A stretch of DNA of 64,000 bases from Candidatus Sericytochromatia bacterium (GTDB taxonomy: Bacteria > Cyanobacteriota > Sericytochromatia > UBA7694): NCBI GenBank assembly GCA_018780035.1, contig JADMKE010000014.1:73271-137270 (forward strand), in the 5' to 3' direction. Each line of letters opens with the position of its first letter. The stretch's first letter is position 1. The translations under genes were made by a program, and so were the position numbers. The notes beneath the pieces were generated by a model. The model worked only from the letters and a program-made list of their open reading frames with translations. It made no database searches and had not been told where the DNA came from. Shown piece by piece: positions 10,091 through 56,791 of this stretch.

Positions 10091-10110
10091 TGGGCCTCAG
10101 GTCAAATGAA

Positions 10111-10145
10111 AAGCCCCTGCTTTTTCGCAGGGGCTTTGTTTTAAG
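10111..10145. terminator. Bidirectional rho-independent terminator between convergent genes
   Basis: aagcccctgc tttttc gcaggggctt followed by a T-run. Confidence 0.6.
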
Positions 10146-10169
10146 TCGAATTTTGATTCAGAGGCTGAA

Positions 10170-22180: not shown

Positions 22181-22714
22181 CTAGACCAGAGATTGGGCCA
22201 GTCCAGCCAATTGGGTTTTGAGTGAGCCGTCGATCATGCGATCGCCAATTTTGATGCGCACACCGCCCAAGAGGGACGGATCTGTTTCACAGCGCATTTC
22301 CACGGACTGACCGAGATAATCTTCAAGTTCCTGTTTGAGCAAGACCTCTGTCTTCTTAACCAAGGGAACTGCTGTAACCACTTCTGTGACTACTTTTTTG
22401 TGCAGCTGATTAAGCAAGCGCTGGTATTCAGCGGCAATTTCACTCAGATAATTTTCACGTTTTTTGTCTACCAACAGGTAGAGAAAATTCAGCATTTCAG
22501 CTGGGATTTTGGCTTCAAACAGCTGTGTGAAAGTTGAACGTTTGTCGTTTTTTTTAATCACAGGATGCTGTAAGATGCGTTTCAAATCGGGATTTGAATT
22601 GACCAAGTCACACACACTGTGCAATGTGGCGCCAAATTCATCCGCTTTATTTAAGTCGTGGGCCAGGCCAAACAGCGCTGCGGCATAGCGCTCAGCAATG
22701 ACTTTTTGCTTCAT
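22181..22714 (-). CDS. atpH: ATP synthase delta (OSCP) subunit
   Basis: Size and position; ERYAAALF N-terminus typical of delta. Confidence 0.8.
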   Translation of the reverse strand: MKQKVIAERYAAALFGLAHDLNKADEFGATLHSVCDLVNSNPDLKRILQHPVIKKNDKRSTFTQLFEAKIPAEMLNFLYLLVDKKRENYLSEIAAEYQRLLNQLHKKVVTEVVTAVPLVKKTEVLLKQELEDYLGQSVEMRCETDPSLLGGVRIKIGDRMIDGSLKTQLAGLAQSLV

Positions 22715-23199
22715 GATTTAAACTCCTTGAAGTCTTTGAGAGAGAAGGCAAAATCTTCCACCAAAGCGGAATGGCCCTTTTGGTCGAGACGTTGGCTTGC
22801 CATTTCTTGGGCGGTGGCCATGACCTGATTGACCAAATCAGCTTTGAGACGCAGTTTGAGATTGTGAAATTCCTGCTCAATCTGGCGCTCCATGCGGACG
22901 CGCAAAGCCTCAATCTCGCGGACAGTATCTGTTTCAATTTTGCTCGCAGCGGCGATGCCACGGGCTTCAGCCTCTTGGCGAATCGAGGCAATTTCTTGCT
23001 CAACCACAGCCATTTGGCGTTTATGGGATTCCAATTCCTGGTTGATATCTGCCAGGTTTTTTTCGGCCTCTTCTACAGAATGAATGATTCCCTGTTGTTT
23101 TTTATCCATGGCCTCAGAAATTTTGGGAACCACAAATTTAAACAGCAAGAAAACCAAAATACCAAAATTGAGAACCGAAGCAACGATGAGATTTAACAT
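22711..23199 (-). CDS. atpF: Fo ATP synthase b subunit
   Basis: N-terminal TM helix plus long charged coiled coil; ATGA overlaps with flanking genes. Confidence 0.8.
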   Translation of the reverse strand: MLNLIVASVLNFGILVFLLFKFVVPKISEAMDKKQQGIIHSVEEAEKNLADINQELESHKRQMAVVEQEIASIRQEAEARGIAAASKIETDTVREIEALRVRMERQIEQEFHNLKLRLKADLVNQVMATAQEMASQRLDQKGHSALVEDFAFSLKDFKEFKS

Positions 23200-23654
23200 T
23201 ATCCGACGCTCACTTCTTGTTTGCTCTCGGGTTCAGATAAACCCAGCAACTGGGCCAGAATCAACTCGGCCAGGGGATTCACTTCTTTTTCAAGCGATGA
23301 ACGCAAACCGGCTTCTTGACCTGCCAATTCTTCTTTGGCCTCATTCATACGGGCTTCCATTTCAGCGTTGACATTGCGCAATTCTGCTTCACGCGCTTGG
23401 GTGGCTGCAGCCACTTGGGAGGAGACCAATTCAAAGGCCTCCTGGCGGGCAGCATCCAGCTTCTGATGATAGCCTTCGCGCATGGATTTTAACTCTTGCA
23501 TGCGGCTTTCAGCGGACTTACGCGCGCCGTCAACAGCTTCTTGGCGTTCACTCTGAATGCGCAGAATCGGCTTAAAAAAGATTTGGTTTAAAATGGCCAA
23601 TAATACGAGAAAATTAATGGCCTGGATTAATATTGTTGCATCAAATTCAACCAC
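23199..23654 (-). CDS. Fo ATP synthase b' subunit
   Basis: Second b-type subunit (TM helix plus coiled coil) immediately upstream of atpF. Confidence 0.7.
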   Translation of the reverse strand: MVEFDATILIQAINFLVLLAILNQIFFKPILRIQSERQEAVDGARKSAESRMQELKSMREGYHQKLDAARQEAFELVSSQVAAATQAREAELRNVNAEMEARMNEAKEELAGQEAGLRSSLEKEVNPLAELILAQLLGLSEPESKQEVSVG

Positions 23655-23711
23655 GTGTGCTACTCCTACTCCAGAATCTACGACAGTTTTTGCTACAATT
23701 TCGCGACAGAA

Positions 23712-23746
23712 AGTTCGCTACAGTTCGCTACAGTTCGCTACAGTTG
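23712..23746. repeat. Perfect 3x tandem repeat (agttcgctac) in the ATP synthase operon leader
   Basis: aagttcgcta cagttcgcta cagttcgcta cagttggtg. Confidence 0.6.
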
Positions 23747-23984
23747 GTGATGCAGAAGTATAGCATTCTTGATGGGGAATCAGCCAGGGAATGGAAGGGA
23801 GTAAGGGGTAGGTGTTAGGTTTTAGGTGTTAGCAGAAAAAGGCAAAAAACAGGCATTTCTCGCTCAGGTTTTAGGTTTCAGCTAAAAAACCAGTGGCAAA
23901 GCCACCCAAACAGAGACAAAGCAAAACCCCCAATGGGCTCTGTCTTCTCTCTTTTGCTAAAACCGAGAACCTGAACCCTAAAAG

Positions 23985-25883
23985 CTATCTAAACAGGGTA
24001 TTGATATCGTCCACAACGGCGTTGTGGGTGCTGATAATTTTGGAGATGGCGGCAAAGACCTTCTGGGCCAAACCGAGCATCGGTACATACTCTGTCAGCG
24101 AGGCCGTCGACGTTTCGAGTGACGCCTGCGCAATGCGAGAGCGCTGACGTTCTTGCCAGGCATTTTTGACTTCAACAGCAGCAAAATTGGTCTGATTGAC
24201 GCTGAAAATATCCCCTGCGCGCAAATGGTTGTATTTGCCTTTGAGGTCAGCCACCATGGCATGCACTTCAAGATTGTTAAAATCATTGCGCACAGAGACA
24301 TAGCCGCTGATATCGCGTCCAGCGCCGCCCAAATCAAAGGTTTGAACAGCCCCATTGACAGAAAATGTCAAAATCTTATCGGCGCTCAAGGTCGTCACGA
24401 CCCGTGCCATGGCACCCACCAAGGGCACACCGACAGCCGTGGCAGGCAAAGCAATTGCAGCCATTGGCAAGGTACCAACAGGGGGCGCGATCTGAACCGG
24501 GTTTTTGTCGTAACCATTGGGGTATTGCATGACCCTGACGGTTCCCGCCACAGGGTTATAAATAACGGCAAAGCCGCCTGAATTGAGCCTGTGGGGATCA
24601 TCTTGGCCAAAGCCAACAACCAGGGTAGAACCCACATCATTGCTGACCCGAACATCCATCTCTAATTCAAATTCAGATGTGGCACGGGACTCGCCCACAA
24701 CCATCCCGGCTGAGCCAAGGGTATTGCGGGAACTCAGAAAGCCATTGACTTTATCATGGGTATAAAGCGCAGCAGGCTGGCTGTACTGGGTCAAGAACGT
24801 CGTGGCAATCGGGTATGCACCAGCCACATTGCCCGCATCCAAGACACTGTAAGCAGCACTTGTGCTGTTATCAATATCTTCATAGCTGCGGATCACGGTT
24901 TCAGGCACGCTGTTGGCATTGAGGTCTTCGGTATTGGTGGCGGCTTGGTTAAAGCCAAATTTAAAGAATTTGCGGAAGGCATCTCCGTTATTGCCACCAA
25001 AAATAATTTGGGTATTGGCCCCCGGAACCGTTTGTTCGTTGCGAATGATCAGGCGATCTTGCACAGGCTCATAGACAGCACTGACACGGCCCCCAAAACC
25101 GGCACCATAGGCATTGATAGCGGCAACCACACTCGGAATAGTGGCGGTTGTCGGGTCAAAGGCCGCGAAGTTAAACACACCGTTGACACCAAAATCAATG
25201 TCCAAACCCGCCAAACCTGTGGGCCAACCGGGATTATTCACTGCGGGCAAAATATAGGGATCATCGTAAATATAGGTCATGCCATCAGTGGTTGTGGAAA
25301 AATCGTTTTTAATCCGCAGAGGCAGATCGCCATCGACTTGAAAAACCGTGGAGCCGTATTGAGACATCAAAAGGCCATCGCGATTGGCCACACTGACCAA
25401 GAGCAAAGATTTATCGCCATATTTGAGTAATTCTTTGGAATAGCCATCAATACTAAAGGTATCAGAACGATCCGTGATGTCCCGGCGAATAAAACCCTGA
25501 CCACTGGAGACCACTTTTAAGCCAGCACTGTTGGCCAAATAACCTTCACTGGTCCAGTGAAACTCCCCATCACGGGTGAGAAAATAACGTCCTGCATTAT
25601 CCGCCAAGACAAAGAAACCCTCTCCTTGAATGGCAAAATGTGCTGAAGACTCAGAATTGACAATGGAACCCTGTCCCCACTCCATACTTGTGGCTTGAAC
25701 ACTCATGGTTGAAGCGGGAATAAAGGTATCTGTAGTGGTATAGAGTTGGCCCAGACCATCGGTAATACTCATGCGCGTGGGCTTATAAGCAGTGCGCGAA
25801 GTGCCTTGCATATTGCCGTTAATAATACCGATCCAGGAGTTGACTGCAACGAGGGAATTGACACCAACTTTTTCGAGAGCCAT
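23985..25883 (-). CDS. flgE: Flagellar hook protein FlgE-like (large, with inserted central domain), paralog 1
   Basis: N-terminus VNSLVAVNSWIGIINGNMQGTSRTAYK resembles the FlgE/FlgG rod-hook N-terminal motif; C-terminus LETSTASLTEYVPMLGLAQKVFAAISKIISTHNAVVDDINTLFR resembles the FlgE C-terminal [43 protein letters not shown]. Confidence 0.75.
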   Translation of the reverse strand: MALEKVGVNSLVAVNSWIGIINGNMQGTSRTAYKPTRMSITDGLGQLYTTTDTFIPASTMSVQATSMEWGQGSIVNSESSAHFAIQGEGFFVLADNAGRYFLTRDGEFHWTSEGYLANSAGLKVVSSGQGFIRRDITDRSDTFSIDGYSKELLKYGDKSLLLVSVANRDGLLMSQYGSTVFQVDGDLPLRIKNDFSTTTDGMTYIYDDPYILPAVNNPGWPTGLAGLDIDFGVNGVFNFAAFDPTTATIPSVVAAINAYGAGFGGRVSAVYEPVQDRLIIRNEQTVPGANTQIIFGGNNGDAFRKFFKFGFNQAATNTEDLNANSVPETVIRSYEDIDNSTSAAYSVLDAGNVAGAYPIATTFLTQYSQPAALYTHDKVNGFLSSRNTLGSAGMVVGESRATSEFELEMDVRVSNDVGSTLVVGFGQDDPHRLNSGGFAVIYNPVAGTVRVMQYPNGYDKNPVQIAPPVGTLPMAAIALPATAVGVPLVGAMARVVTTLSADKILTFSVNGAVQTFDLGGAGRDISGYVSVRNDFNNLEVHAMVADLKGKYNHLRAGDIFSVNQTNFAAVEVKNAWQERQRSRIAQASLETSTASLTEYVPMLGLAQKVFAAISKIISTHNAVVDDINTLFR

Positions 25884-43759: not shown

Positions 43760-44377
43760 ATGCCCGCCTGTCCCTGCTGCCAAAATTCTGAACATCAACG
43801 GGAGCGCACCGCTTATGGCGACTGGAGCCGCTGTCTGAAATGTCGGGCCATTTACACCCCCACCCCCAACACCGCGATGCCTGCCGTACCCAGGCCCCAG
43901 AACGCCTTAAACATCTTTCAAGCCAGAGAAGATGAGACGGGCTTGCATCTCTCCTGGCAAGCCCCCTCCCCGAAAATTTATCTTGCCACAGGCGGAGTGA
44001 CAGCTTTCTTTGGCGGACTGTTTCTACTCGGTGGTGTGTGGCTGGGCCATTGGAGCTATGCCCTGATCGGTCTGCTCTTCGGGGGACTCATGCTCTGGGG
44101 CGGCTTGACTCAAGTGCGCAAAGGCCTCAACACCCACCAAATCAGCCTTTTAGCCACAGGCAAAATCAGCGTAAAAACGGGCCCTTGGCCCCATCAGGGC
44201 TATCCCTTTGAGGCAGAACTCGGCAGCCCCCTGTTTTGCCGCTGCTCGCGCCAAGAGCGCCTGGATTTATATCATTTGTATGCCCTGCAAAACGGCAAAG
44301 CCAAGCTGCTGACACCTGCTGAATTGGAAAGCAAAGAACAGGCGTTTTGGCTGCTTAATCTCTGTCAATCGCGCTGA
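43760..44377 (+). CDS. Hypothetical zinc-ribbon/TM protein
   Basis: N-terminal CPCC...CLKC, two TM helices. Confidence 0.45.
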   Translation: MPACPCCQNSEHQRERTAYGDWSRCLKCRAIYTPTPNTAMPAVPRPQNALNIFQAREDETGLHLSWQAPSPKIYLATGGVTAFFGGLFLLGGVWLGHWSYALIGLLFGGLMLWGGLTQVRKGLNTHQISLLATGKISVKTGPWPHQGYPFEAELGSPLFCRCSRQERLDLYHLYALQNGKAKLLTPAELESKEQAFWLLNLCQSR

Positions 44378-45801
44378 CAGCGCCAGACAGGCATGGCCTG
44401 GCTGATGCCTTTGAGAAAGGCCGAACGGGCCTCAAAGCGATAACCAGCCTCGGTTAAAATCGCCTCGGTGCTGGGGTTTAACACCGTTTCACTCACCCAA
44501 ATCTCGCCCGCCTCAGCCAGACCCTGAATGCGGGCCGCCAAATTGACCGTCTGCCCGAAGAAGTCGAGACGTTCGTTGGCATTGACCGCCAAAACCGGCC
44601 CGGTATGCAAACCCACTTTGAGCCCCAATTGCAACTCAGCCCCAGGCTGATTGAGGGTATCAATGTCCGCGACCATTTCCAGGGCTGCGCGCAGACCATC
44701 TGCTGGGCTGGAAAATGTCGCCATAATCGCATCACCAATCGTTTTGACCACCGAACCTGCATGGCGGCGGGTACAGGCCGTCAACAGGTCAAAATGGCGC
44801 TGCACCAAGGCATAAGCCTGGTAGTCCCCGGTTTGTTCATACATCGCTGTCGAGCCTTTGAGATCGGTAAACATTACAGTCTGGCTACCAATCGAGAGAC
44901 GCAGATCGGGATCCAATTGCTGCATTTTATACAATTCGCGAAAGGTCTGGTGATTGAGCAGCATTTGGGCACTTAAAAAGGGCAATAACTGGCTGGGATG
45001 CGACTGCAAAACTGCCAGCATTGCTTCAAAATCGTATTTCCAAAAGGTCAAAATCCGGGTGGTGGCACTGCAATTGTGAATCCGCAAACTGACCTCACCG
45101 GCAGGCAATTGGCGCTCGTTTTCAACAAAACCCTGCTCGCTGATATCCGTATCCACAACCACGGGCAATGCAGCCAACTCACTGCCCGTTTTGAGCCAAA
45201 ATTGGCTGTGGCTCTGCAGATTGAGCACCCGGTAGAGAGAATTGGGTTCGGCCTGCAGAGGCAAAGCCACTCGCTCATTGGGTTCCACCCAATACAGCCC
45301 CAAACAGAGGGACTGCATCAAGGGCAATAATTCAGGCGCATGTTTCATGCTGGCCGAGAAATAACTGCGATAATAGTTTTCAAGGCTGGCCAGGGGATTT
45401 ACCTGTTCTGAAAAATCGGCAATCCCCGGATGTAAGCTGAAGGTCACTTCCACCTGCCGATCCAGCGAAAAATCCACGTCCTGATTGCAAACAGGGCAAA
45501 AGGCATGGCCCTCTTTTAAGCCGTTGATACTCCCATAGGTGTATTCGGTGCTGCCACAGCCCAGGCAGACAACGGTCCAATTCAAGTCAAAGAGGCCAAT
45601 CCGGGTGCTGTAGAGCAAGAGGTCGAGCAAACTGGAAAGGTCAAAATTGTAATCCTGTGCCAATTGCAAAGGATTTAAGCGCAGCAATTGCCAAGGGCTG
45701 AGTTGGGGCAAGAGCTCGCCAAAACGCTGAACCAATCCCGCTGGCAATTGGGGATAATGCTCCAGGGCTTTGAGTTTGCGTTGCAAGGTATCTGTCAACA
45801 T
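44365..45801 (-). CDS. Class III adenylate/guanylate cyclase with N-terminal zinc-ribbon-containing sensor region
   Basis: Cyclase core VMFTDLKGSTAMYE...VKTIGDAIMATF...GLHTGPV; CLGCGS...CPVC ribbon near the N-terminus. Confidence 0.8.
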   Translation of the reverse strand: MLTDTLQRKLKALEHYPQLPAGLVQRFGELLPQLSPWQLLRLNPLQLAQDYNFDLSSLLDLLLYSTRIGLFDLNWTVVCLGCGSTEYTYGSINGLKEGHAFCPVCNQDVDFSLDRQVEVTFSLHPGIADFSEQVNPLASLENYYRSYFSASMKHAPELLPLMQSLCLGLYWVEPNERVALPLQAEPNSLYRVLNLQSHSQFWLKTGSELAALPVVVDTDISEQGFVENERQLPAGEVSLRIHNCSATTRILTFWKYDFEAMLAVLQSHPSQLLPFLSAQMLLNHQTFRELYKMQQLDPDLRLSIGSQTVMFTDLKGSTAMYEQTGDYQAYALVQRHFDLLTACTRRHAGSVVKTIGDAIMATFSSPADGLRAALEMVADIDTLNQPGAELQLGLKVGLHTGPVLAVNANERLDFFGQTVNLAARIQGLAEAGEIWVSETVLNPSTEAILTEAGYRFEARSAFLKGISQAMPVWRCQRD

Positions 45802-46430: not shown

Positions 46431-47867
46431 ATGATGCCCCTACTGAAAACCACCCCCCTTGTATTGCTCCTGGCAGCCAGCTTAAGTGCGGCTCCGGCCT
46501 GGGCCCAAACACACACACATCCCCCCGCCACAGAACAGACTGACCCCACAGCCACAGATCACACAGCCATGAACCACACGGAAATGGACCACACCACCCA
46601 CGCCAACCCCGTTACCCACACCCTGATGCAGCGTGCCCGCACCCTGGGTTCGGGCACAAGCTTGCTACCGCAGGAGAGCCCCATGCGCATGTGGAGCCTC
46701 GAAAGCGGCGACTGGCTCTGGATGTTCCACGGCGATCTGGTTGGCGGCTATAACCAGCAGGGCGGCCCCCGTGGCGCCCAGACCTGGGCCGCTGAAAACT
46801 GGGCCATGGCAATGGGATCGGGGCAGCTCGGCCCCGGCATTCTCGATTTGCGGGCGATGTTCAGCCTCGAAGCTTTGACGCTGCCCCCGGGTGGCACCCC
46901 CGAACTCTTTCAAACGGGCGAAACCTATCAAAATTTGCCCCTGCGCGATAGGCAACACCCCCACGACCTGCTGATGGAATTGGCCGCACGTTATACCTAC
47001 CAGCCCAGCCCTGATTTAAACTTTTTTGGCTATGCTGGTCTCGCTGGCGAGCCCGCCCTGGGGCCCTCGGCGTTTATGCACAGACCTTCCGGGGCCGACA
47101 ATCACTGGGCCCCCCTGGCGCACCATTTGCAAGACGCCACCCATATCAGCTACGGCGTGGGCACTTTGGGCGCACGTTGGCAGATGTTTCAGCTCGAAGC
47201 TTCCCTTTTTAATGGGCGGGAACCCGATGAAAACCGCTTTAATCTTGACTTTGGCCCCCTCGATTCCTGGTCGACGCGTCTGAGCTGGATTCCCAGCCAA
47301 AACTGGGTGGCCCAGGTCTCCTATGGCCAGCTCAAATCCCCCGAGGCCTTGGAGCCGGGAGATGTCCATCGCAGCACAGCCTCTGTCACCCACGTGACAG
47401 AACTGGGCGAGGGCCTGCTCTCGAGCACTGCAATCTGGGGCATGAACCAGGAGTTTCACGGCGAAAGCCGGGTCTTACACAGCTTTGGGCTCGAAAGCCA
47501 ATACGACTGGGATATGCAGCGCAACCACGTCTATGGCCGCCTCGAAGTGGTGGATAAATCGGGGCTGGATCTGATTGCCAGCAGCGAAGCAAATCACCAC
47601 AATTTGTACCGGATTACGGCTTTAACCCTGGGTGGCATTCGCGAATTGGACTGGAGCGAACATTTTGACTTGGGCCTGGGGGCCGACGCCAGCCTGTATT
47701 TTGGCGATGCCCAGGTGCGCCAAACCTATGGCGAAATGCCCTATGGCTTTCGGGTTTATCTGCGCCTTCGTCCGCCCACCATGCAGCACACGGCCCCAGC
47801 TGCAACGGCGGAAACAGAATCCCGCAGTTGGATTCTGCCCGCCGAAGACGGTGAACACAATCATTGA
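46431..47867 (+). CDS. Secreted His-rich protein, probable outer-membrane beta-barrel, putative member of the CueR copper regulon
   Basis: Signal peptide; His-rich N-terminus (HTHPP, HTAMNHTEMDHTTHANPVTH); alternating beta-strand-like C-terminus. Confidence 0.55.
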   Translation: MMPLLKTTPLVLLLAASLSAAPAWAQTHTHPPATEQTDPTATDHTAMNHTEMDHTTHANPVTHTLMQRARTLGSGTSLLPQESPMRMWSLESGDWLWMFHGDLVGGYNQQGGPRGAQTWAAENWAMAMGSGQLGPGILDLRAMFSLEALTLPPGGTPELFQTGETYQNLPLRDRQHPHDLLMELAARYTYQPSPDLNFFGYAGLAGEPALGPSAFMHRPSGADNHWAPLAHHLQDATHISYGVGTLGARWQMFQLEASLFNGREPDENRFNLDFGPLDSWSTRLSWIPSQNWVAQVSYGQLKSPEALEPGDVHRSTASVTHVTELGEGLLSSTAIWGMNQEFHGESRVLHSFGLESQYDWDMQRNHVYGRLEVVDKSGLDLIASSEANHHNLYRITALTLGGIRELDWSEHFDLGLGADASLYFGDAQVRQTYGEMPYGFRVYLRLRPPTMQHTAPAATAETESRSWILPAEDGEHNH

Positions 47868-49672
47868 GTACCTGCCGTCCCAGATTCGCTGCCAAAGCGG
47901 CTTTCGAGCCGGGCGAGCGCCCCTTTGAGCTGCCGCCACTGGTCCTTGCGCAGGCGCTTGAGCAGCGAGGGGCGGGCCTGTTCGACCAAGGCCTTCACCC
48001 GCTCGAGGGTCTCGGCATTGCCGTGGCGACCTGCCATTTCCAAAACCTCTGTATAGACCAAATGGTGGCGCGAATAATCAAACCAGCCGGGGTCATGCGG
48101 CGGTTTGAGCAGGTCATATTCTGACTCTGCAGGCAAATTCAGGAGCGGATCGGTCTGAAAGGTATCAAGCAAAATATGAATCAATGCAGGCTGGGCCTGC
48201 ATTTTAAATAGGCGAAAAAAGGCCCCAATCAGATGCCAATGTTCGTACTGACTTGGATCATAGACTCCGGGCGGAAGATCTTCAAGGCGCGAGCGCTGGG
48301 GATCCAAGTCCAGAAAAATCCGCGCCAAGGCTGGCAATAACAAAGTGAGTGTCTCAGCACGGCAGGGCTGAACCAGGGCCTCAAACAGGTACTGAAAAAA
48401 CCAGCGTTGAAAGTCCAAGATATAAGGTCGCGGAGGCACCCTCATTTGTGCCGAAGAGGTCTGGAGAGAGGGCTTGAACCTTTCTTGAGCATAGCGCCGC
48501 GCCCACTCAACTTCTCCCTCCAACCAGGTAATCACGCGCTCAGCGGGCAAAGGCCAATCGGGCCAGTGGCAGTTGAGCCGTTCGACAAGCTTGTAAGCGA
48601 GACTGACCGCAGACTTACGTGCCAAGGCCGCATCGATCAGAGCAAACACGGCTTCGACCACAGCCGCAGAGGGCTGAAGTAACAAGCTGTCTACAGCCAA
48701 AATCACCATCCGCTCTCCGTCATCAGGAGAGCCAATACCCCGGTACAAAACGGGCAGCAGATCCAGCAAGGGGCGTTGCAAATCTGCTGCCAATTTCAGC
48801 TCATACGTCAACATCAGGGCCTTTTTCCAATACACAGCCTGGTAAATTGAGCCAGGAATAAACGGCGCTTCTTTGCCCGAGAGCTTGCAGCGAAAATCCA
48901 AAGCCAGAGTCAAGCACTGGATTTGAATCTCACGGGGATAATAGCTTAAACTCGCCAAGGCTGCCAGCGGCGCAGGGGTATGCGGCAAAGCCAACCAACG
49001 AGAGAACTCATGATACACGCAGGGGTCTTGCTGAGAGCCCAAGGCCTGCAAACACCAGGCCTGCACCCAGGGTGGCCAAATCTCAAGTTGGGCATAGAGC
49101 CGGGGCCGCAGTTCGGACCAAGGCATGGTTGCGATCAGATTTTGGGCGATCACTGGTTCAAAATCCCCACCCAGCCAGCGCTTTAAAAAAGCCTGAAACA
49201 CCAGCTCAGGGGATAGACCTTGCAAAATCTGGCCAATACCCGGCCAGCGGGCATGGGCCACAACCCAAGCCAAAATCCGCTCAGGGTGGCGCGGCTGAAG
49301 AGCGGCAGCCACTTTCAAGCGCAGCTCTCGGCGCTCCAGTTTAAAGGCCAACCAATCCAATAAATCGGCATCTGCCTCCGGGCAGCACAGAAGTCGGTCG
49401 AGAATCGCTTCACGGCAGGGCCAGTGGCGGCTCAAATGGGTCAGCAAAAACACCCCCACTTCAGCCAAAGCAGGGGCTTCAAAAGCAGTAGGATCAATCG
49501 GCACGCTGAGAAAGGCCTTCACGAGCAGCTGGCGAGATTCGGAATGGGCCCAGATCGCCTGTAAATGCTGGTAACGCACAGGGGCAGAGCAATCAGAATT
49601 CAAGAATCGCGTCAAAACAGCAGCCATACAATATCTCCAAGACTTTTTCTGTTCAGACAGCAGCCCAAGCAA
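47861..49672 (-). CDS. Hypothetical 603-aa Leu/Trp-rich helical repeat protein
   Basis: ORF only; no motif recognised. Confidence 0.45.
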   Translation of the reverse strand: MLGLLSEQKKSWRYCMAAVLTRFLNSDCSAPVRYQHLQAIWAHSESRQLLVKAFLSVPIDPTAFEAPALAEVGVFLLTHLSRHWPCREAILDRLLCCPEADADLLDWLAFKLERRELRLKVAAALQPRHPERILAWVVAHARWPGIGQILQGLSPELVFQAFLKRWLGGDFEPVIAQNLIATMPWSELRPRLYAQLEIWPPWVQAWCLQALGSQQDPCVYHEFSRWLALPHTPAPLAALASLSYYPREIQIQCLTLALDFRCKLSGKEAPFIPGSIYQAVYWKKALMLTYELKLAADLQRPLLDLLPVLYRGIGSPDDGERMVILAVDSLLLQPSAAVVEAVFALIDAALARKSAVSLAYKLVERLNCHWPDWPLPAERVITWLEGEVEWARRYAQERFKPSLQTSSAQMRVPPRPYILDFQRWFFQYLFEALVQPCRAETLTLLLPALARIFLDLDPQRSRLEDLPPGVYDPSQYEHWHLIGAFFRLFKMQAQPALIHILLDTFQTDPLLNLPAESEYDLLKPPHDPGWFDYSRHHLVYTEVLEMAGRHGNAETLERVKALVEQARPSLLKRLRKDQWRQLKGALARLESRFGSESGTAGTQ

Positions 49673-49981
49673 AAGGGTTCAGCTCCAGTTATAGTGCTCC
49701 CCAGTGTCAAGACAGCAAATCATGCAACTTTAACTCCCTGGTCTGAAGGTTCTGCAAAGTACACTTGATCTGGAGTCAAATTGTTTAATGCCTGGTGGTA
49801 CCTCCTCTGATTATAAAACGCCACATAGCGCTTTACACCTGATTTTAAAGCCAATACATGTGACCTTTACCCCGAAAAGTGGAGTCCCCGAAAAGAGTGA
49901 GCACTTAAAGTGGAAGCCGAGTTGACCCGTCACCTCCATATTTTGTACACTTTGAATAAGTACATATTTAAGAGGTGTTTC

Positions 49982-50260
49982 ATGCCCAGAGTCCCCGTGG
50001 ATGATAATGAGCGCATGAATTTGCGTTTGAAATCAGAGCAAAAGGCCCGTTTAATCCGAGCAGCCGCTTTGCAACAGACAGACCTGACCCATTTTATTCT
50101 ACAGCTGGCCCTGCGTGAGGCCGATGCAGTGATTGCCCGAGCCGAGCAGATTCAACTCAGTGAAAGAGATAGTTTGCGGGTACTTGATCTGCTCGAAAAC
50201 CCACCTGCACCCAACGCAAAACTGCGTGCGGCAGCAGCGGCACTGCCACCCCTCACATGA
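49982..50260 (+). CDS. DUF1778 (RHH) antitoxin of a GNAT-toxin TA pair (TacA/KacA-like)
   Basis: MPRVPVDDNERMNLRLKSEQKARLIRAA, the typical DUF1778 N-terminus; 4-nt overlap with the toxin gene. Confidence 0.75.
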   Translation: MPRVPVDDNERMNLRLKSEQKARLIRAAALQQTDLTHFILQLALREADAVIARAEQIQLSERDSLRVLDLLENPPAPNAKLRAAAAALPPLT

Positions 50261-50784
50261 CCCTTCCGGCTTGGTATGAAGTGCCCATCGCCAAAACCCA
50301 TGCCCGCAAAGATTTTGACTGTGGGGATGCAGAACTCAACCTCTTTCTCAGAAATCATGCCCGTCAAAGCCACGAAAAAGGGGGAGCGAAAACCTTTCTG
50401 GCGATTGACAGTGCCGATCAAAAAACCATTCTCGGTTTTTACAGCTTGGCCCCTGCTTCCTTAGCTTATGCACAAACACCTACTCTACTTCGGCGAGGGC
50501 TAGCTCGGCATGATATTCCAGGCTTTCGGCTCGCTCGTTTGGCCACCGCACTTTCTATGCAAGGCAAGGGTCTCGGCGGACAACTTCTGCTCATGGCCGG
50601 TCGGCGCTGTTTGCTGGCAGCCAATGAAGTGGGCGGGGTCATGCTGATCCTCGATGCCAAAAACGAACGGGCAGCTCAGTGGTACCAGAGTTATGGAGCC
50701 ATTCCACTTGAAGTCCAACCGCTGACCTTGGTTCTGCCTTTGGCTACCATTCAAGTAGCGCTTCAGGACGTTGCGAAAATTTGA
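50257..50784 (+). CDS. GNAT-family acetyltransferase toxin (TacT/AtaT/KacT-like)
   Basis: GNAT motif A around RLATALSMQGKGLGGQLLL; paired with the DUF1778 gene upstream. Confidence 0.75.
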   Translation: MTLPAWYEVPIAKTHARKDFDCGDAELNLFLRNHARQSHEKGGAKTFLAIDSADQKTILGFYSLAPASLAYAQTPTLLRRGLARHDIPGFRLARLATALSMQGKGLGGQLLLMAGRRCLLAANEVGGVMLILDAKNERAAQWYQSYGAIPLEVQPLTLVLPLATIQVALQDVAKI

Positions 50785-50931: not shown

Positions 50932-51792
50932 TCAGTCCAGCTTAAATCCTTGAGCTATATAAAATTTGAAAAGAGGGGTTTTCATAAATTCAGGAGCAAA
51001 AGATCCATAAAATCTCAGAAGAGCTTCTGTTTTTGATTTTATTGCTGGATATGTACTCGCTAATTCAATGATATGCTCAGGCTGAGAAAAGACCATGCCT
51101 GCAAAAGTATTAAAATCTTCTTCTAGGTCAGAAGTCGAGTACTGGCTTAAAAAACCGATTTTGAGCAAAGCGGTTTCTTCTTCTGTTTTAAATCCTTCCT
51201 TCAGAGCTTCAGTTCCTGGATTTTCCTTTGTTTCATAGACATACTGAAAGTTTTTGGGGTTAATTTTTCGCCACTCAGAAACTGGGAAATTAAATTTTTT
51301 TAATAAAATAGAGCTGAATTCATGATGAAATGAATCCAAAACAAAGAGACGGTTATCTGTGGATGTTTGATCAGAGAAATTGGCAATAAACAAATCCCCC
51401 TTACCCCTCTCATCATAAAAAGCATATGTTGCCCCATACAATTGGCCATAGAGGTAAAGTCTTTTTGAAATCGCAATGGCACTCAGGCTTTCACTTATAA
51501 CTTTCTTGGGGTAGTTTCCCAATGCTTCTTTTAATGTTTCACAGAAAACAGCCCCGCTGCCAATATCTATAGATTCCGAGTGGGCATCCATAGGGGGTTC
51601 TCTCCATGAGGAATAGAAGACAGAATCGGGCTTCTCATAAACAATTTTAATGGCATAGTCTTTTTCTAAGCCAGATACGCAGCCCTCAAAAGAGGATGTA
51701 TCCCCTTTGCTTTGGGGGATACATCCTAAAAAGAAAAAACAGAATAGCAAAAACCGAGCACGAACACGCTTTAACATGAGAGGGTCTGGCAC
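50932..51792 (-). CDS. Low-GC hypothetical lipoprotein
   Basis: Lipobox-like FFLGC; low GC. Confidence 0.45.
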   Translation of the reverse strand: MPDPLMLKRVRARFLLFCFFFLGCIPQSKGDTSSFEGCVSGLEKDYAIKIVYEKPDSVFYSSWREPPMDAHSESIDIGSGAVFCETLKEALGNYPKKVISESLSAIAISKRLYLYGQLYGATYAFYDERGKGDLFIANFSDQTSTDNRLFVLDSFHHEFSSILLKKFNFPVSEWRKINPKNFQYVYETKENPGTEALKEGFKTEEETALLKIGFLSQYSTSDLEEDFNTFAGMVFSQPEHIIELASTYPAIKSKTEALLRFYGSFAPEFMKTPLFKFYIAQGFKLD

Positions 51793-52251
51793 TCAGTCTT
51801 CTGAATTTTTAGTCAATTTGTTTGGGCTTAGGAATCGGTCCTGGTACAGGAGGCTTGGGTGTTCCACCAGAAGGCGGCTTCTCAGGTTTGGGTTGTCATC
51901 TGGTTTTGAATTAACAGACACGTTCACTTTTTTACCCGGCTTACGTGGACGGCGGCGGATCTCTAAAAACCGCTTTTTTTCCTCGTTGGGGAGTGTGTCA
52001 TAAAAGCTCTTGACCAACTCCATAAAGGGACGGGTTAAAAAGTTTTTGAGGTTGTATTGGTAAATTCGGGTTGTGCCCAGTCTTTCAGAAACGAGAATCC
52101 CTGCCCGTTCATAGCGTTCGAGCTGCTTCTGCACCTGACTCACGGAGATCTCAAAATCATGGGCAATGGCTGAAGCGTAGGTCTTCCCATAATGATGAAG
52201 ATGCAAAAATACCCGCATGGCAGTGGGACTGCCTAAAATAGTGTCTAACAT
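51793..52251 (-). CDS. Winged-helix transcriptional regulator (low-GC island)
   Basis: MRVFLHLHHYGKTYASAIAHDFEISVSQVQKQLERYERAGIL, a wHTH pattern. Confidence 0.5.
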   Translation of the reverse strand: MLDTILGSPTAMRVFLHLHHYGKTYASAIAHDFEISVSQVQKQLERYERAGILVSERLGTTRIYQYNLKNFLTRPFMELVKSFYDTLPNEEKKRFLEIRRRPRKPGKKVNVSVNSKPDDNPNLRSRLLVEHPSLLYQDRFLSPNKLTKNSED

Positions 52252-52323: not shown

Positions 52324-52424
52324 GATTTTATTAAAGAAGTTTTATTTTTTGTTCAAGTCATTTCGAATATTTCGATTAAAATGTTATGATACGGACGAAC
52401 AGCTATCAAGTATCATTGTGAATA

Positions 52425-52901
52425 TTGAGAGGGATGAGTATGACAGGTGCCCTTGCTGAATTGATGAAGCCGACCGAAGCTGAATCTCAACAGGCCAAAG
52501 AGACCGGTCGTCTCTTGGCTCGTCTCCTGCCTAAGCACTCTGAAGATCTACAACTCCAAGCAACGGATGTTCAGGGACAGAAACAAGCGATTCTTTTGCC
52601 TGCCTCAGCTGTCAAACTACTGGTTGCTCTGCTTGCTGAGATGGCTCAAGGCCATGCGGTTACACTGGTTCCCTATCATGCAGAATTAACCACTCAGCAA
52701 GCAGCGGATTTTTTAAATGTTTCGAGGCCCTATCTGGTGAAGCTCCTTGAAAGAGGGGAAATGCCCTTTCATAAAACGGGCAAGCATCGCCGGGTCCGCT
52801 TTGAGGATCTTCTTGTTTATCAGCAGAAGCTGAGAGAGGCCCGCTCCCTGGCTTTAGATCAGCTGACCGCTGAAGCCCAAGAGCTGGATCTCGGATATTG
52901 A
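52425..52901 (+). CDS. HTH (excisionase/MerR-like) DNA-binding antitoxin paired with a PIN toxin
   Basis: LTTQQAADFLNVSRPYLVKLLERGEMPFHKTGKHRRVRFEDL HTH; gene pair separated by 6 nt. Confidence 0.6.
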   Translation: MRGMSMTGALAELMKPTEAESQQAKETGRLLARLLPKHSEDLQLQATDVQGQKQAILLPASAVKLLVALLAEMAQGHAVTLVPYHAELTTQQAADFLNVSRPYLVKLLERGEMPFHKTGKHRRVRFEDLLVYQQKLREARSLALDQLTAEAQELDLGY

Positions 52902-52907
52902 ATTAGA

Positions 52908-53474
52908 GTGGTCTTTTCTGTTTTATTTGATGCCTGTGTATTTTTCCCAGCTCCGTTGCGGGATTTTTTACTGACTTTGGCAGAAACCGAGCTATTTCGA
53001 GCCAGGTGGACAGATCAGATTCACGAAGAATGGACCCGGAATTTGCTTCTACGAAGGCCGGATTTGAATCCTGAACGCCTCAAGCAGACCTGCCGGACAA
53101 TGAATCAATTCTTCCCTGATTCTCTGATTCAAGGGTATGAAGATTTGATTCCCCATCTGACCCTCCCGGATCAGAACGACCGCCATGTCCTGGCCGCAGC
53201 GATTCGGGGCCGCTGTGAAATCATTGTGACCCTCAATCTGAAGGATTTTCCGCCATCAGTCTTAAATGAATATGATATCGAAGCCCAACATCCTGACGAT
53301 TTTGTACTCAATACCATGGAGCTGGGAATGGATTCTGTGCTCTCAGCGATACGAAAACAGCGTGCCCGACTCAAAAATCCCCCCAAAACAGCGGAAGAAT
53401 ATTTAGAAACCTTGGAACGACAGGGCTTACCCATGACTTATCAGAGGCTGAAAGGCTATGTTGAGCTGATTTAA
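52908..53474 (+). CDS. PIN-domain nuclease toxin
   Basis: VLFDACVFFPA (first acidic residue), further conserved D/E spaced as in PIN domains; pairing with the upstream HTH gene. Confidence 0.65.
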   Translation: MVFSVLFDACVFFPAPLRDFLLTLAETELFRARWTDQIHEEWTRNLLLRRPDLNPERLKQTCRTMNQFFPDSLIQGYEDLIPHLTLPDQNDRHVLAAAIRGRCEIIVTLNLKDFPPSVLNEYDIEAQHPDDFVLNTMELGMDSVLSAIRKQRARLKNPPKTAEEYLETLERQGLPMTYQRLKGYVELI

Positions 53475-54649
53475 TCCTCACTGAGAGGCGAAATCTGACG
53501 AATGAGCTGATTGCCTTTATCTGCGACTAATAGAAGTCCCCTTTGATCAAGAGTTAGCCCCCAAGGTTCATTCAAGGAAGCTAAATCACCTCGGCACTTG
53601 TCTCTTGGAGGACAGGTAGAACGTCCAACCAAGCTGATCAGCTCAGTTCTGTCGGCGCTTAATTTAAAAATCTGGTGACTAAAAGAATCTGAAATATATA
53701 AAATGTCATTTTTATCCACAGCAATCCCTGTTGGCTGACTGAATGGCGAAGGATAGCCTTTGGGGTTTGTTTTTAAACCAGGGGCAATGACTGTGACAAC
53801 CTCTCTATTTCTGGTAATTTTTCGGAGGCTGCGATTACCGGAGTCTGTCACATAAATTTCGCCTTTCGTGTTAATCGCCAAACCAATTGGGGAGTCAAAA
53901 CGGGCGTCAAGGCCTTTACCATCTTTGAGACCTCTTTCCTTTTGAGCAGAACCCACAAACGTTGTTAATACACCTTGCTCAATCTTGCGAATACAATGAT
54001 TGTCTGTATCCGCAATGAAAATGACACCATCTTCATTAATCACAATTCCTTGTGGGGCTTTGAGTTGAGCGGGTTCTCCTTCAAGTTTCAGTACGGGTGT
54101 TTTTACCTCTACAACTTCGTCAGAAGTATTCGAAGAATTTAAATACCTAATTTGTTTTGAAAGAATGGAGGTACGTGCTGTATCTGGACCTAAGACAATG
54201 ATAATATTGTTATCTTTATCTATGGCCAGAGTTGGGACAATATCCCGTGGTTTTATGTACCCACCCCCAAAATCTCCTGGTCTCTTGGTATTGGTGAGTA
54301 TCTTTGCAAATCCAGTTGATGGTAAAGTTTTTGTATCCCCATTTTCCAAATCTATTTGATAAACAATGTCTGAGCGTTCTCCCCCAACTGTGGAATAGAG
54401 TTTATTGTCCTTATCTAAAGCAATCCATGTTGGTTTTTCTAAGGACTGATTGGTCTTTAAAGCTGTTATATTTACTTTATCCGCCCGCATCAAATGACTC
54501 TCAACCCATTGATTGCGAGCAGTAGGTACTAACAAGGAATAAGGGTGTTTCTGTACTGCGAATTTTTCTTCATTTAAATTGATGCTGCACGCCAATAAAC
54601 CACTGAATAATGAGAATAAACCCATCCATTTGAATAAGTGAAATGGCAT
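53471..54649 (-). CDS. NHL-repeat lipoprotein (beta-propeller)
   Basis: Repeated GxxxFxxPxGIAVDxxGNIYVxD units; lipobox LLAC. Confidence 0.75.
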   Translation of the reverse strand: MPFHLFKWMGLFSLFSGLLACSINLNEEKFAVQKHPYSLLVPTARNQWVESHLMRADKVNITALKTNQSLEKPTWIALDKDNKLYSTVGGERSDIVYQIDLENGDTKTLPSTGFAKILTNTKRPGDFGGGYIKPRDIVPTLAIDKDNNIIIVLGPDTARTSILSKQIRYLNSSNTSDEVVEVKTPVLKLEGEPAQLKAPQGIVINEDGVIFIADTDNHCIRKIEQGVLTTFVGSAQKERGLKDGKGLDARFDSPIGLAINTKGEIYVTDSGNRSLRKITRNREVVTVIAPGLKTNPKGYPSPFSQPTGIAVDKNDILYISDSFSHQIFKLSADRTELISLVGRSTCPPRDKCRGDLASLNEPWGLTLDQRGLLLVADKGNQLIRQISPLSED

Positions 54650-54666
54650 CTCAGCCCCCCCCTATT

Positions 54667-56646
54667 TTAAGCAAAGTACTGCGTCCAAAAGGCATTGGTC
54701 AGCAGGCGGTTCTTGGAGATCACCCGCAGCGTGCTGCCGGTGTGCTTTTCGATCAGGCGGTAGTTTTGTGGCTCGACTTTGAGCTCGGTTTCGAGCGTAT
54801 TGGTCAGCAATTGCTCCAACATGCGCGTGCAGGCCTCGGCTGAGCGCACGACCAAAATGCCATTGAGCACCCCCGAAGAGAGAATCACCTGCAAGGCCAG
54901 CGGGTGCACCTCTTTAAAGGTATGTGCCCGGCGCTCAAAAAACAGCGCGGCCTGCACCAATTTGTCGATCAAGACCCCACGCAAATTCTCGGGCAGCAGG
55001 GGCCGCGCCGTTGGCCGCGAGCGCAGGGTCAATTCATCGAGCCAAGCACGGGCCTGAATCTGACTGTCGGGATCGAGCTCTTTGATCTCGCCATAGAGGT
55101 CAAAATCTGCCCAATGCTGTTCGATCAACTCGGCAAGGGCCTGTGGGGCCAATTTTTGCAATTGGGCGGTTAAAATCTTGCCGACCATGCCCTGCCGATC
55201 GAGGTCTTCATCCAGTTCCAGCTTCAAATCCTGCATCCAGACGCGCAGGGAATGTTCGTGTTCGCGCATGAGCGATTCGCTGTTGATCCCCTCTGCCGCT
55301 GAAAAGAGGCGGGGCACGTAGACGATCACGGGTTTGCCCTGGCCCAGTGCCACCGAGGCCTCGGAGTCTTTGCCAAAGGTATCCCCTTTTTGGGCCATAT
55401 AAATGGTCAAGCTGGCGCGTTTGAGCATCAGGGCCTCGACCAGGCCTTTGGCTACCCGGTCGGAGATCCACGAGAGGGTGGGATTAAAATAGCGCAGGTG
55501 CAAAGGCGCAATCCGGGGATCGTTAAAAATCGTCTCAACAAAGGTATTCACCGAGATAAAATCCGCCCGCTCGCGCATGGAAGTGGCGATGTAGACGTCC
55601 ATAAAGGGTTCGGTGAGATAAGCCGAAAGGTTTTGCTGGCCCATTTCTTGGGTTTCTTCGATCCGGGCCAGATCTTCGTCTTCGGGCGCCAGCCGGGCGG
55701 CTTCGCGCCGCACCTCGTCGGGGTCGACCTTGTTAAACAGGGTCTCTTCGATTTCAAGATCGGAGTCAAATTTGCGCAAGAGCGTCTGAATTCTGTGCAG
55801 TTTTTTGCTGGCAAAGAGCAAAATACTGCGCTGCACGTCTTCTTCGAGCCAAGTCGCCAACTCCAATAATTTGCTGTGCAACTCATGGCGCTCACGGTTT
55901 TCCCGGCGCACGCGCTCAGCAGAGATATACCCCAAATCGTCGAGGCGCTCGCGGGCAATCGGGCGAATCGTCTCAAAGGGGCGACGCAGGGTATACATCA
56001 TCTTGCTGATCGTCTCCAGCGGGGCCAAGGCATCAGCCAAAGCCACTTCTTCACAATTGGAGAGGGTTTTGTAAGCTTTGCGGAAAGAGCCATAAATGCG
56101 AATCGCCGTGGTCTGAAAGCGGCGCACCCGCTCTTCAAATTGGGCCACCGAGGCAAAATTACTCTGGCCGAGAAAACGCCGATAAAAAGCAGGGGTCACG
56201 CTGCGTTCGCCGTAAAAGGTCAGCAGGGCGTTAAAATGGGCGTGGGCCTGTACCATGCTCATCTGCACCTGGGCATCGAGCACATACTCGCTGATCGCTT
56301 CGATCAACATGCCCTGTGAGAGCGGGTCGAGGGTTTCCAGATTCAGACTTTTGCCGAGCATTTCCGACAAAGCCGCTTCAAAGGCAATGGCACTGAGATA
56401 ATCATCGTGGGTGACCACGCGCCAATCGGGGTCTTCCCCCATGTCTAAGACATCCGCCAGCAGGGTGAGGTCTTCGGGGCTGGGCATGCGCCGCCCCTGC
56501 TCCAAAAGGGTAATCACATTGCGACTGCGGCCCATGTGATCGGCCAATTTTTTTTGAGTCAAATTGTGACGCAAGCGGTATTTCAGTACAATATCCCCAA
56601 TCCGGCGAATGCCGGGCTGGATCTCTTCGGGACCGTGTTCAGCCAT
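54667..56646 (-). CDS. 659-aa XRE-family HTH protein with a nucleoside-2-deoxyribosyltransferase-like (NDT/SLOG-like Rossmann) domain and a C-terminal helical domain
   Basis: HTH LRHNLTQKKLADHMGRSRNVITLLEQGRRMPSPEDLTLLADVL; mid-region VYIATSMRERADF...ASLTIYMAQKGDTFGKDSEASVALGQGKPVIVYVP resembles the NDT-family pattern (DxGTAxExGYAxAxGKPV). Confidence 0.55.
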   Translation of the reverse strand: MAEHGPEEIQPGIRRIGDIVLKYRLRHNLTQKKLADHMGRSRNVITLLEQGRRMPSPEDLTLLADVLDMGEDPDWRVVTHDDYLSAIAFEAALSEMLGKSLNLETLDPLSQGMLIEAISEYVLDAQVQMSMVQAHAHFNALLTFYGERSVTPAFYRRFLGQSNFASVAQFEERVRRFQTTAIRIYGSFRKAYKTLSNCEEVALADALAPLETISKMMYTLRRPFETIRPIARERLDDLGYISAERVRRENRERHELHSKLLELATWLEEDVQRSILLFASKKLHRIQTLLRKFDSDLEIEETLFNKVDPDEVRREAARLAPEDEDLARIEETQEMGQQNLSAYLTEPFMDVYIATSMRERADFISVNTFVETIFNDPRIAPLHLRYFNPTLSWISDRVAKGLVEALMLKRASLTIYMAQKGDTFGKDSEASVALGQGKPVIVYVPRLFSAAEGINSESLMREHEHSLRVWMQDLKLELDEDLDRQGMVGKILTAQLQKLAPQALAELIEQHWADFDLYGEIKELDPDSQIQARAWLDELTLRSRPTARPLLPENLRGVLIDKLVQAALFFERRAHTFKEVHPLALQVILSSGVLNGILVVRSAEACTRMLEQLLTNTLETELKVEPQNYRLIEKHTGSTLRVISKNRLLTNAFWTQYFA

Positions 56647-56791
56647 GCTCTGCTTCTTTGCTCATTCTGATATTCAAGATTAAAATTTCAAGCAGCTTAA
56701 CACAGATAAAGCCTTCAACCAAGACACCCACAGGCTTCGCGCCTGATTTACGCCCAATTGGAAATTCAGAGAGACGGTGTATAATTGAAAG

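Follow-up and report, generated by a model that had tools for sequence, protein, structure and literature searches.

What does a protein do when its sole database label is XRE transcriptional regulator, and when its helix-turn-helix (HTH) is the only part that any public profile matches? The question is raised by a gene on contig JADMKE010000014.1 of a Candidatus Sericytochromatia bacterium, of which a stretch of 64,000 nucleotides (nt; positions 73,271 to 137,270, hereafter the window) was analyzed. The genome is assigned to the Candidatus Blackallbacteria / Sericytochromatia. The gene is a complete open reading frame (ORF) on the minus strand at 54667..56646, with an ATG start and its stop codon within these coordinates, and encodes 659 amino acids (aa), as a preliminary description of the window had it. 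More than 836 homologues were found, with identities of 44-95% over 97-100% of the query and E-values down to 0, and because nearly all of these are full-length (~650 aa) the ORF is a genuine gene and not a product of chance. The family of ~650-aa proteins is uncharacterised, its members being labelled only 'XRE-family HTH transcriptional regulator' or 'hypothetical protein'; it is listed as a regulator because its putative catalytic part, a nucleoside 2-deoxyribosyltransferase (NDT)-like domain, escapes public profiles. The 659-aa protein is here tentatively proposed to be a self-contained effector, whose NDT-like domain would act on the N-glycosidic bond in a deoxynucleotide, by cleavage or exchange, E429 being the nucleophile and D422 the sugar-binding residue. 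The candidate itself is solid: the gene, its HTH, the fold, the invariant residues, the distribution and the neighbourhoods are established by the analysis, while catalysis, substrate, regulation and a role in defence are predicted.

The protein was modelled by AlphaFold as a monomer with a mean predicted local distance difference test (pLDDT) score of 87.8 and a predicted template modelling (pTM) score of 0.80, and is composed of five parts, all encoded on the minus strand. The first, the XRE/Cro-C1 HTH (aa 22-72; 56431..56583), is a clade-specific 'head' that scores above the Pfam gathering thresholds of both HTH_31 (38.7 bits, cut-off 27) and HTH_3 (37.7 bits, cut-off 23) and exhibits a five-helix lambda-repressor-like fold, and the canonical Cro/C1 HTH of the preliminary description is thereby confirmed. 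It is followed by an all-alpha middle domain (aa ~80-340; 55627..56409), delineated from secondary structure and alignment and bearing the motifs IYGSFRKA and DDLGYISAERV, and by the NDT/TIR-like Rossmannoid N-glycosidase-type domain (aa ~345-450; 55297..55614). Strand beta1 of the latter carries DVYIATSMR (aa 350-358; 55573-55599), while its predicted active-site loop D422-T-F-G-K-D-S-E429 is encoded at 55360..55383, both motifs being present as previously quoted. A helical linker (aa ~456-580; 54907..55281) contains a helix-extended-helix (HeH; SAP/Rho-N-like) element, a structural observation to which sequence searches add no confirmation, and an invariant, clade-specific WADFDL motif (aa 512-517). 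The C-terminal module (aa 581-659; 54670..54906) consists of an invariant HPLALQVILSSGVLNGILVVRS and an alpha/beta unit ending in STLRVIS...LLTNAFW, its HPL...GVLNG segment being of low model confidence in both structure models. The middle domain and the C-terminal module are obligate core, being present in 319 and 321, respectively, of 322 apparently complete relatives, and the former is retained in relatives without an HTH. Neither of these two modules matches any known family: when the full protein, three sub-fragments and 20 diverse domain sequences were searched against Pfam, NCBIfam and PADLOC, nothing in aa 80-659 was matched and only the HTH was recovered, and in a full-length Foldseek search against the PDB the HTH dominates and the other domains receive no informative match.

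The mid-region had been likened to the NDT/SLOG family, and of this reading the NDT-type fold stands, on structure comparison and profile alignment, while the SLOG part and an expected PF05014 profile match do not. In the structure model, aa ~345-450 adopt the flavodoxin-like/Rossmannoid fold of NDTs, and the CMP/hydroxymethyl-CMP hydrolase MilB is among the fold matches from the NDT family. No sequence or fold match to SLOG proteins (LOG, DprA/Smf, YpsA-like) was obtained, with no SLOG/LOG structure among the 60 matches listed. Neither the 659-aa protein nor the domain set matches Pfam TIR, TIR_2 or DUF4062, and in the structure comparison of the domain NDTs score above TIR domains and the local motif aligns to NDT. 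At the level of sequence, Pfam models of PF05014 and its clan Nribosyltransf returned nothing at E<=10 for the window domain and 20 diverse members, and a broadened domain profile searched with hmmsearch against PDB sequences reached no NDT chain. PDB sequence searches with phmmer (protein) and hmmsearch (domain profile) gave only the HTH and matches of the segment 'LRYFNPT', the latter to UDP-glucose 4-epimerase at E~0.6, which were judged to be due to chance.

As membership of a described family was thus absent at the sequence level, active-site equivalence was compared directly with the L. leichmannii NDT, whose reference sequence was confirmed to be identical to that of 1f8x. Alignment of the domain profile to this single NDT by hhalign placed aa 413-446 on NDT residues 83-115 (P=9e-4), with D422 opposite Asp92, G425 opposite Gly94 and E429 opposite Glu98, and against a three-sequence NDT profile the register was unchanged (probability 72%, P=3.4e-5). 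Glu98 is the established NDT nucleophile according to Porter et al. 1995, as cited in PMC3710099, and on these sequence-profile alignments E429 with D422 would correspond to the catalytic Glu that follows strand beta3 and to the Asp that precedes it. Among 353 non-identical family domains E429 is conserved in 352, the D422 position is occupied by D in 341 and E in 12, R358, G425 and K426 are found in all 353, Y352 and E404 in 352 each, and D427 in 351. This near-absolute invariance argues for catalysis, with E429 as putative nucleophile or general base and D422 as putative ligand of a sugar hydroxyl. A likeness by eye between the beta1 loop VYIATSMR and the phosphate loop LYFCGSIR of DNPH1 was not used, hhalign having found nothing there.

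Relatives are scattered across bacterial phyla. In a scan of one genome per species they were detected in 326 of ~185,000 species (~0.2%), belonging to the Sericytochromatia/Melainabacteria, Myxococcota, Planctomycetota, Acidobacteriota, Bacteroidota, Verrucomicrobiota, Proteobacteria, Campylobacterota, Elusimicrobiota and Gemmatimonadota, with one archaeon. When 1.84 billion representatives were searched exhaustively by phmmer for the core (aa 344-659), only 588 proteins were obtained at E<=1e-3. Among the 322 apparently complete members, a sample biased to the HTH clade, 202 contain the HTH, helical, NDT-like and C-terminal parts and 117 (median length 548 aa) the core without the HTH; no Pfam domain was found at the N-terminus of these short forms, which in the unbiased representative list are at least as diverse as the long form. 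In one metagenomic protein (P0198, L093:8001-10088) a genuine TIR head (TIR_2, E=1.2e-15) replaces the XRE domain, the helical, NDT-like and C-terminal core being kept. Since P0198 carries this TIR besides its NDT-like domain, the two domains appear not to be redundant, and since its nearest relatives lack a TIR the protein is regarded as a one-off fusion and was down-weighted as immune evidence. A neighbour-joining tree of the family is at odds with taxonomy, with three Pyrinomonadaceae copies in three clades, and indicates horizontal transfer between bacteria, although the Sericytochromatia copies do fall into one coherent clade. The notion of a phage- or plasmid-borne gene was ruled out, there being 0 matches in 50,697 phage genomes and 0 in 72,556 plasmids; in IMG/VR a single distant match was found among 2.9 million contigs.

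The proposed mechanism is centred on the conserved core of this rare, horizontally mobile family, i.e., the helical domain, the NDT/TIR-like N-glycosidase domain and the C-terminal module. The NDT-like domain would cut or exchange the base-sugar bond of a deoxynucleotide. Its substrate would be free, either a (deoxy)nucleoside monophosphate ((d)NMP) or a derivative of a nucleoside, or perhaps a nucleotide that is part of DNA; E429 would act as nucleophile or general base, while the sugar would be held by D422. Gating of the activity would fall to the helical and C-terminal modules. The XRE HTH of the present clade, perhaps with the HeH-like element, would bind DNA, either for auto-repression at the gene's own promoter or for tethering or restraint of the enzyme. 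A consensus scan identified a sigma-70-like promoter candidate on the minus strand at 56664..56691 (TTGAAA, 16-nt spacer, CAGAAT), which ends 18 nt upstream of the ATG, and a 12-nt AT-rich palindrome, TTGAAATTTTAA, at 56680-56691 overlaps its -35 hexamer and may serve as an operator to which the HTH of the protein itself binds. The most likely biological role is in genetic conflict, where the protein would serve as a single-gene effector of the anti-phage or abortive-infection type that depletes or corrupts nucleotide pools, a logic for which experiments on the NDT-like effector of retron Ec86 provide the example; more broadly, the family probably acts in defence or nucleotide control. The hypothesis is directly testable, as homologues exist in culturable hosts, namely Myxococcota, Rhodoferax ferrireducens T118 and Longimicrobium terrae.

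An unlikely alternative is that the protein is a ligand-sensing transcription factor, in which the XRE HTH regulates genes and the NDT-like domain, being non-catalytic, offers a pocket for sensing nucleotides or nucleosides. SLOG and TIR-like domains do serve as sensors in signalling systems. However, approximately one third of the apparently complete relatives lack the HTH and yet keep the whole core, and DNA binding is therefore not the defining activity of the family. The presence of an equivalent of the NDT nucleophile in 352 of 353 domains and of the sugar ligand (D or E) in all 353 also speaks against it, and no gene or regulon is conserved beside the family.

The neighbours of the family were surveyed at 80 loci (L012-L091) fetched from the genome collection, with counts taken over 58 immediate neighbours. 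No universal neighbour emerged across the 80 loci. A D12 Dam-type methyltransferase accounts for nine of the 58, mostly on the same strand and with gaps of -40 to +86 nt; some nine of the 80 loci are methyltransferase-linked, in two or three subclades that mix phyla. The 8xMP membrane protein follows with six, thymidylate kinase with four, a dCTP-deaminase-like protein with two and a deoxynucleoside kinase with one, while HEPN_Swt1, ABC-3C CTD6, DUF499, Eco57I and Uma2 are among the families represented once. The second shell is mixed: housekeeping genes are numerous there, while OLD-TOPRIM/AAA_15, UvrD and integrase genes occur in small numbers.

These neighbours are also relevant to another improbable reading, in which the protein is an enzyme of nucleotide-pool sanitation or salvage, either a (d)NMP N-hydrolase resembling DNPH1/Rcl or MilB or an NDT-like base exchanger, with the HTH regulating its own gene; it might remove deoxynucleotides that are non-canonical, for instance the N6-methyl-dAMP that Dam-methylated DNA releases. 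The presence of MilB among the fold matches is in keeping with this, as are the recurrent neighbours of nucleotide metabolism (thymidylate kinase, deoxynucleoside kinase, dCTP deaminase, the dCMP-deaminase family, Ham1/ITPase and PfkB), the Dam-type methyltransferases at ~9 loci, a very high core conservation that would fit an enzyme on universal metabolites, and the lack of family members on the phages and plasmids searched. What weighs against a salvage enzyme is that the family is restricted to ~0.2% of species and that its tree points to horizontal transfer, together with a multidomain layout of 550-650 aa with swappable heads, which is atypical of such enzymes. In addition, several of these nucleotide-metabolism neighbours either hit candidate defence models (a Tmk-like protein, for example, matching PDC-M51B) or adjoin SIR2 or NACHT genes, and hhalign against DNPH1 finds no match.

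Such conflict-associated surroundings are seen at several loci. In Sorangium sp. So ce1024 (L006:5909-10094) genes for a Ham1-like ITPase, a SIR2_2 protein and a deoxynucleoside kinase precede the family member on the same strand with little space between the genes; a NACHT ATPase and pairs of RadC and ECF-sigma genes are located nearby, and the whole looks like a nucleotide-centred conflict cluster. The Longimicrobium locus contains PemK, a dCMP-deaminase-family gene, DCD and PfkB; a further locus (L008) ParE, IS66, AAA, ORC/CDC6-like and PRTase-CE genes; and another (L010) PIN, Unstab_antitox and an integrase. A PDC-M60 candidate system lies directly upstream of the family member in L046 and L047, and L054 has PDC-S14 (a GIY-YIG protein). 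The preliminary description had suggested a search for co-occurrence with defence islands; the association of the family with defence genes and mobile elements is thus real but partial, the figures being raw counts. In other Sericytochromatia (L003:7093-8004, L011/L017:5114-5989 and L022:5093-5989) a gene for a YlqF/RbgA-like circularly permuted GTPase, which itself comes after an SBP_bac_5 gene, lies upstream and its end overlaps the start of the family gene by 4 nt; the lineage of the window is arranged differently upstream.

It is decidedly doubtful that the NDT fold acts on DNA itself, with the HTH and HeH/SAP-like modules guiding the excision or exchange of its bases. Such an activity would account for the closely packed operons that the gene forms in some lineages with Dam-type methyltransferase and DpdB-like genes, and for the links to genes of deoxynucleotide supply. 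In L058:5995-11080 the family member, a D12 methyltransferase and a 769-aa DndB/DpdB-like protein (PADLOC DpdB, E=4e-25) are arranged head-to-tail with 0-nt gaps, while in L044:5995-11173 the DpdB-like and methyltransferase genes are encoded on the other strand, convergent with the family member; the DndB/DpdB-like proteins of the two loci are 770-800 aa long, and the clusters suggest a DNA-modification-linked module in Bacteroidota. In the window no methyltransferase lies beside the 659-aa gene, which therefore does not have the cognate adjacent methyltransferase of a classical restriction-modification system. All known restriction glycosylases have the HALFPIPE fold, which is unrelated (PMC10273834, PMC7806768). 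If the reading were true, no 'restriction glycosylase' or DNA transglycosylase of NDT fold would have been known before this one, which would be functionally analogous to R.PabI or DpdA.

Conceivably, the family produces a signal, derived from a nucleotide, that is meant for 8xMP, its recurrent membrane partner. A local HMM search found 8xMP linked in 8-9 loci, including one of the short clade (L075) and that of the archaeon (L091), and it adjoins members from very different phyla and from HTH-bearing and HTH-less clades alike. The 8xMP (PF24838) loci are L037, L042, L054, L066, L067, L071, L075 and L091, and the domain occurs there as a small protein or within a longer one. 8xMP is not represented in PADLOC, and literature searches on 8xMP/PF24838 gave nothing relevant. 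A divergent 130-aa membrane protein encoded in the window was considered and is not an 8xMP homologue.

The neighbour closest to the 659-aa gene in the window is a co-oriented gene at 53471..54649 (minus strand), which starts 17 nt downstream and encodes a 392-aa NHL-repeat protein (Pfam NHL, E=1.4e-30) whose N-terminus (...FSGLLAC) resembles a lipoprotein signal by eye. Beyond it lie an HTH_17 + PIN_3 toxin-antitoxin pair (52425-53474) and a TacA1-like + GNAT toxin-antitoxin module (49910-50784). Both the 17-nt gap and the adjacency to a toxin-antitoxin island agree with the preliminary description, and since the spacer contains no terminator-like site, co-transcription of the two genes in the window strain is possible; the same arrangement was found in L018. 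Nevertheless, conservation of the two genes as neighbours is refuted. Next to an 80% orthologue the NHL gene is encoded on the other strand and separated from the family member by a further gene, it is absent beside the family member in L003, L004 and L006-L011, and no NHL cluster is common to the immediate-neighbour sets of the 80 surveyed loci. Moreover, the genomes L012 (whose protein is 99% identical to the 659-aa protein) and L013 match the window at 96% and 95% nucleotide identity across the gene and the flank upstream of it, yet in both of them synteny stops exactly at 54666/54667, the stop codon of the 659-aa gene, to be resumed at ~52327 in L013. The segment ~52330-54666, containing the NHL gene and the HTH_17/PIN_3 pair, is therefore a strain-variable insert, in place of which L012 possesses a CoiA-like nuclease gene and L013 HTH_20 and DUF2204 nucleotidyltransferase genes. 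It is accordingly very improbable that the HTH-NDT protein and a co-transcribed NHL lipoprotein act as a two-gene system; the NHL lipoprotein gene is a strain-specific passenger that lies outside the system and has no conserved functional link to it. The case is a warning that an operon partnership is not to be inferred from one genome, where a close neighbour may be a strain-variable insert. Overall, the sequence facts of the preliminary description held, and its interpretation was supported in part.

The interval 52328-54666 constitutes a hypervariable hotspot directly downstream of the 659-aa gene, near which no tRNA was found. Within the 17-nt spacer (54650-54666) a G8 homopolymer (AATAGGGGGGGGCTGAG) forms the ribosome-binding region of the NHL gene, and L018 has G5 at this position. 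The difference in G-tract length between strains could change NHL translation, and a role in phase variation is speculative. Elsewhere in the window, a 478-aa DUF5939 + adenylate/guanylate cyclase protein is encoded at 44368-45801 (minus strand), and an HTH_20 regulator (152 aa) is followed directly by a Peptidase_Mx1-like putative lipoprotein (286 aa) at 50932-52251 (minus strand), while no Pfam family matches the two large ORFs at 46431-47867 and 47861-49672. Segments of lower G+C content (0.36-0.46, compared to a typical ~0.53) at 1-2000, 10001-14000 and 22001-24000 may be further acquired regions.

As for known systems, the preliminary description knew of none described with this architecture, and no description of an HTH + NDT-like architecture was found in the searchable literature, nor does PADLOC 2.0.0 contain a model of it. 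XRE controller proteins and regulators of immune systems (C.AhdI, C.BclI, C.Esp1396I and CapH) are stand-alone proteins of ~70-100 aa, whereas here the HTH is covalently fused to a putative effector and the operator is a candidate. With respect to the NDT family (PF05014; 1f8x, E. faecalis 7m5h), DNPH1/Rcl and MilB, the 659-aa protein shows no sequence-level membership, and classical NDTs are free-standing enzymes of ~150 aa that form dimers or hexamers in which an adjacent subunit completes the active site, in contrast to a domain embedded in 659 aa. It also differs from the TIR/DUF4062 (Swarozyc) NADases, as there is no Pfam match and NDT structures outscore TIR structures. The Abi-NTD-NDT fusions predicted by Anantharaman et al. 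2013 (PMC3710099) combine an NDT-type toxin/effector domain with variable N-terminal sensor domains in conflict systems; the concept of a glycosidic-bond-cleaving NDT-type domain fused to variable N-termini is shared, but the 659-aa protein has an XRE HTH and a novel helical domain rather than AbiJ-NTD1, and its domain escapes all Pfam models where those fusions carry recognisable NDT domains. These fusions and the DUF4062/Swarozyc TIR-like NADases are conceptual precedents. NDT/TIR-type N-glycosidases are an emerging major class of immune effectors, comprising TIR NADases, retron NDT effectors and DUF4062/Swarozyc proteins, to which the present family would, if active, add a new stand-alone architecture in nucleotide-targeting immunity or nucleotide-pool control; for annotation it would be an unrecognised catalytic family, possibly with a new nucleoside/nucleotide biocatalyst.

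The closest validated analogue of the 659-aa protein is the effector of retron Ec86 (Retron-Eco1, type II-A), in which an NDT-like domain with catalytic E106 is joined to a DNA-contacting lobe, and which is restrained on multicopy single-stranded DNA (msDNA), is triggered by phage Dcm (Dam for retrons generally) and kills the cell by the depletion of nucleoside derivatives (bioRxiv 10.1101/2023.08.16.553469). No reverse transcriptase or msDNA locus was seen among the called genes of 10 contexts or the scanned flanking ORFs of the window, and no reverse transcriptase among the 25 commonest neighbour families listed, no dedicated non-coding RNA search having been run; PADLOC, which is expected to include retron effector models, matches only the HTH of the protein. 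The 659-aa protein is approximately twice as long as the Ec86 effector, with helical and C-terminal modules of its own and an activity that is predicted, yet like that effector it joins an NDT-like domain to modules of DNA-binding type and, in some lineages, has a Dam-type methyltransferase adjacent to it.

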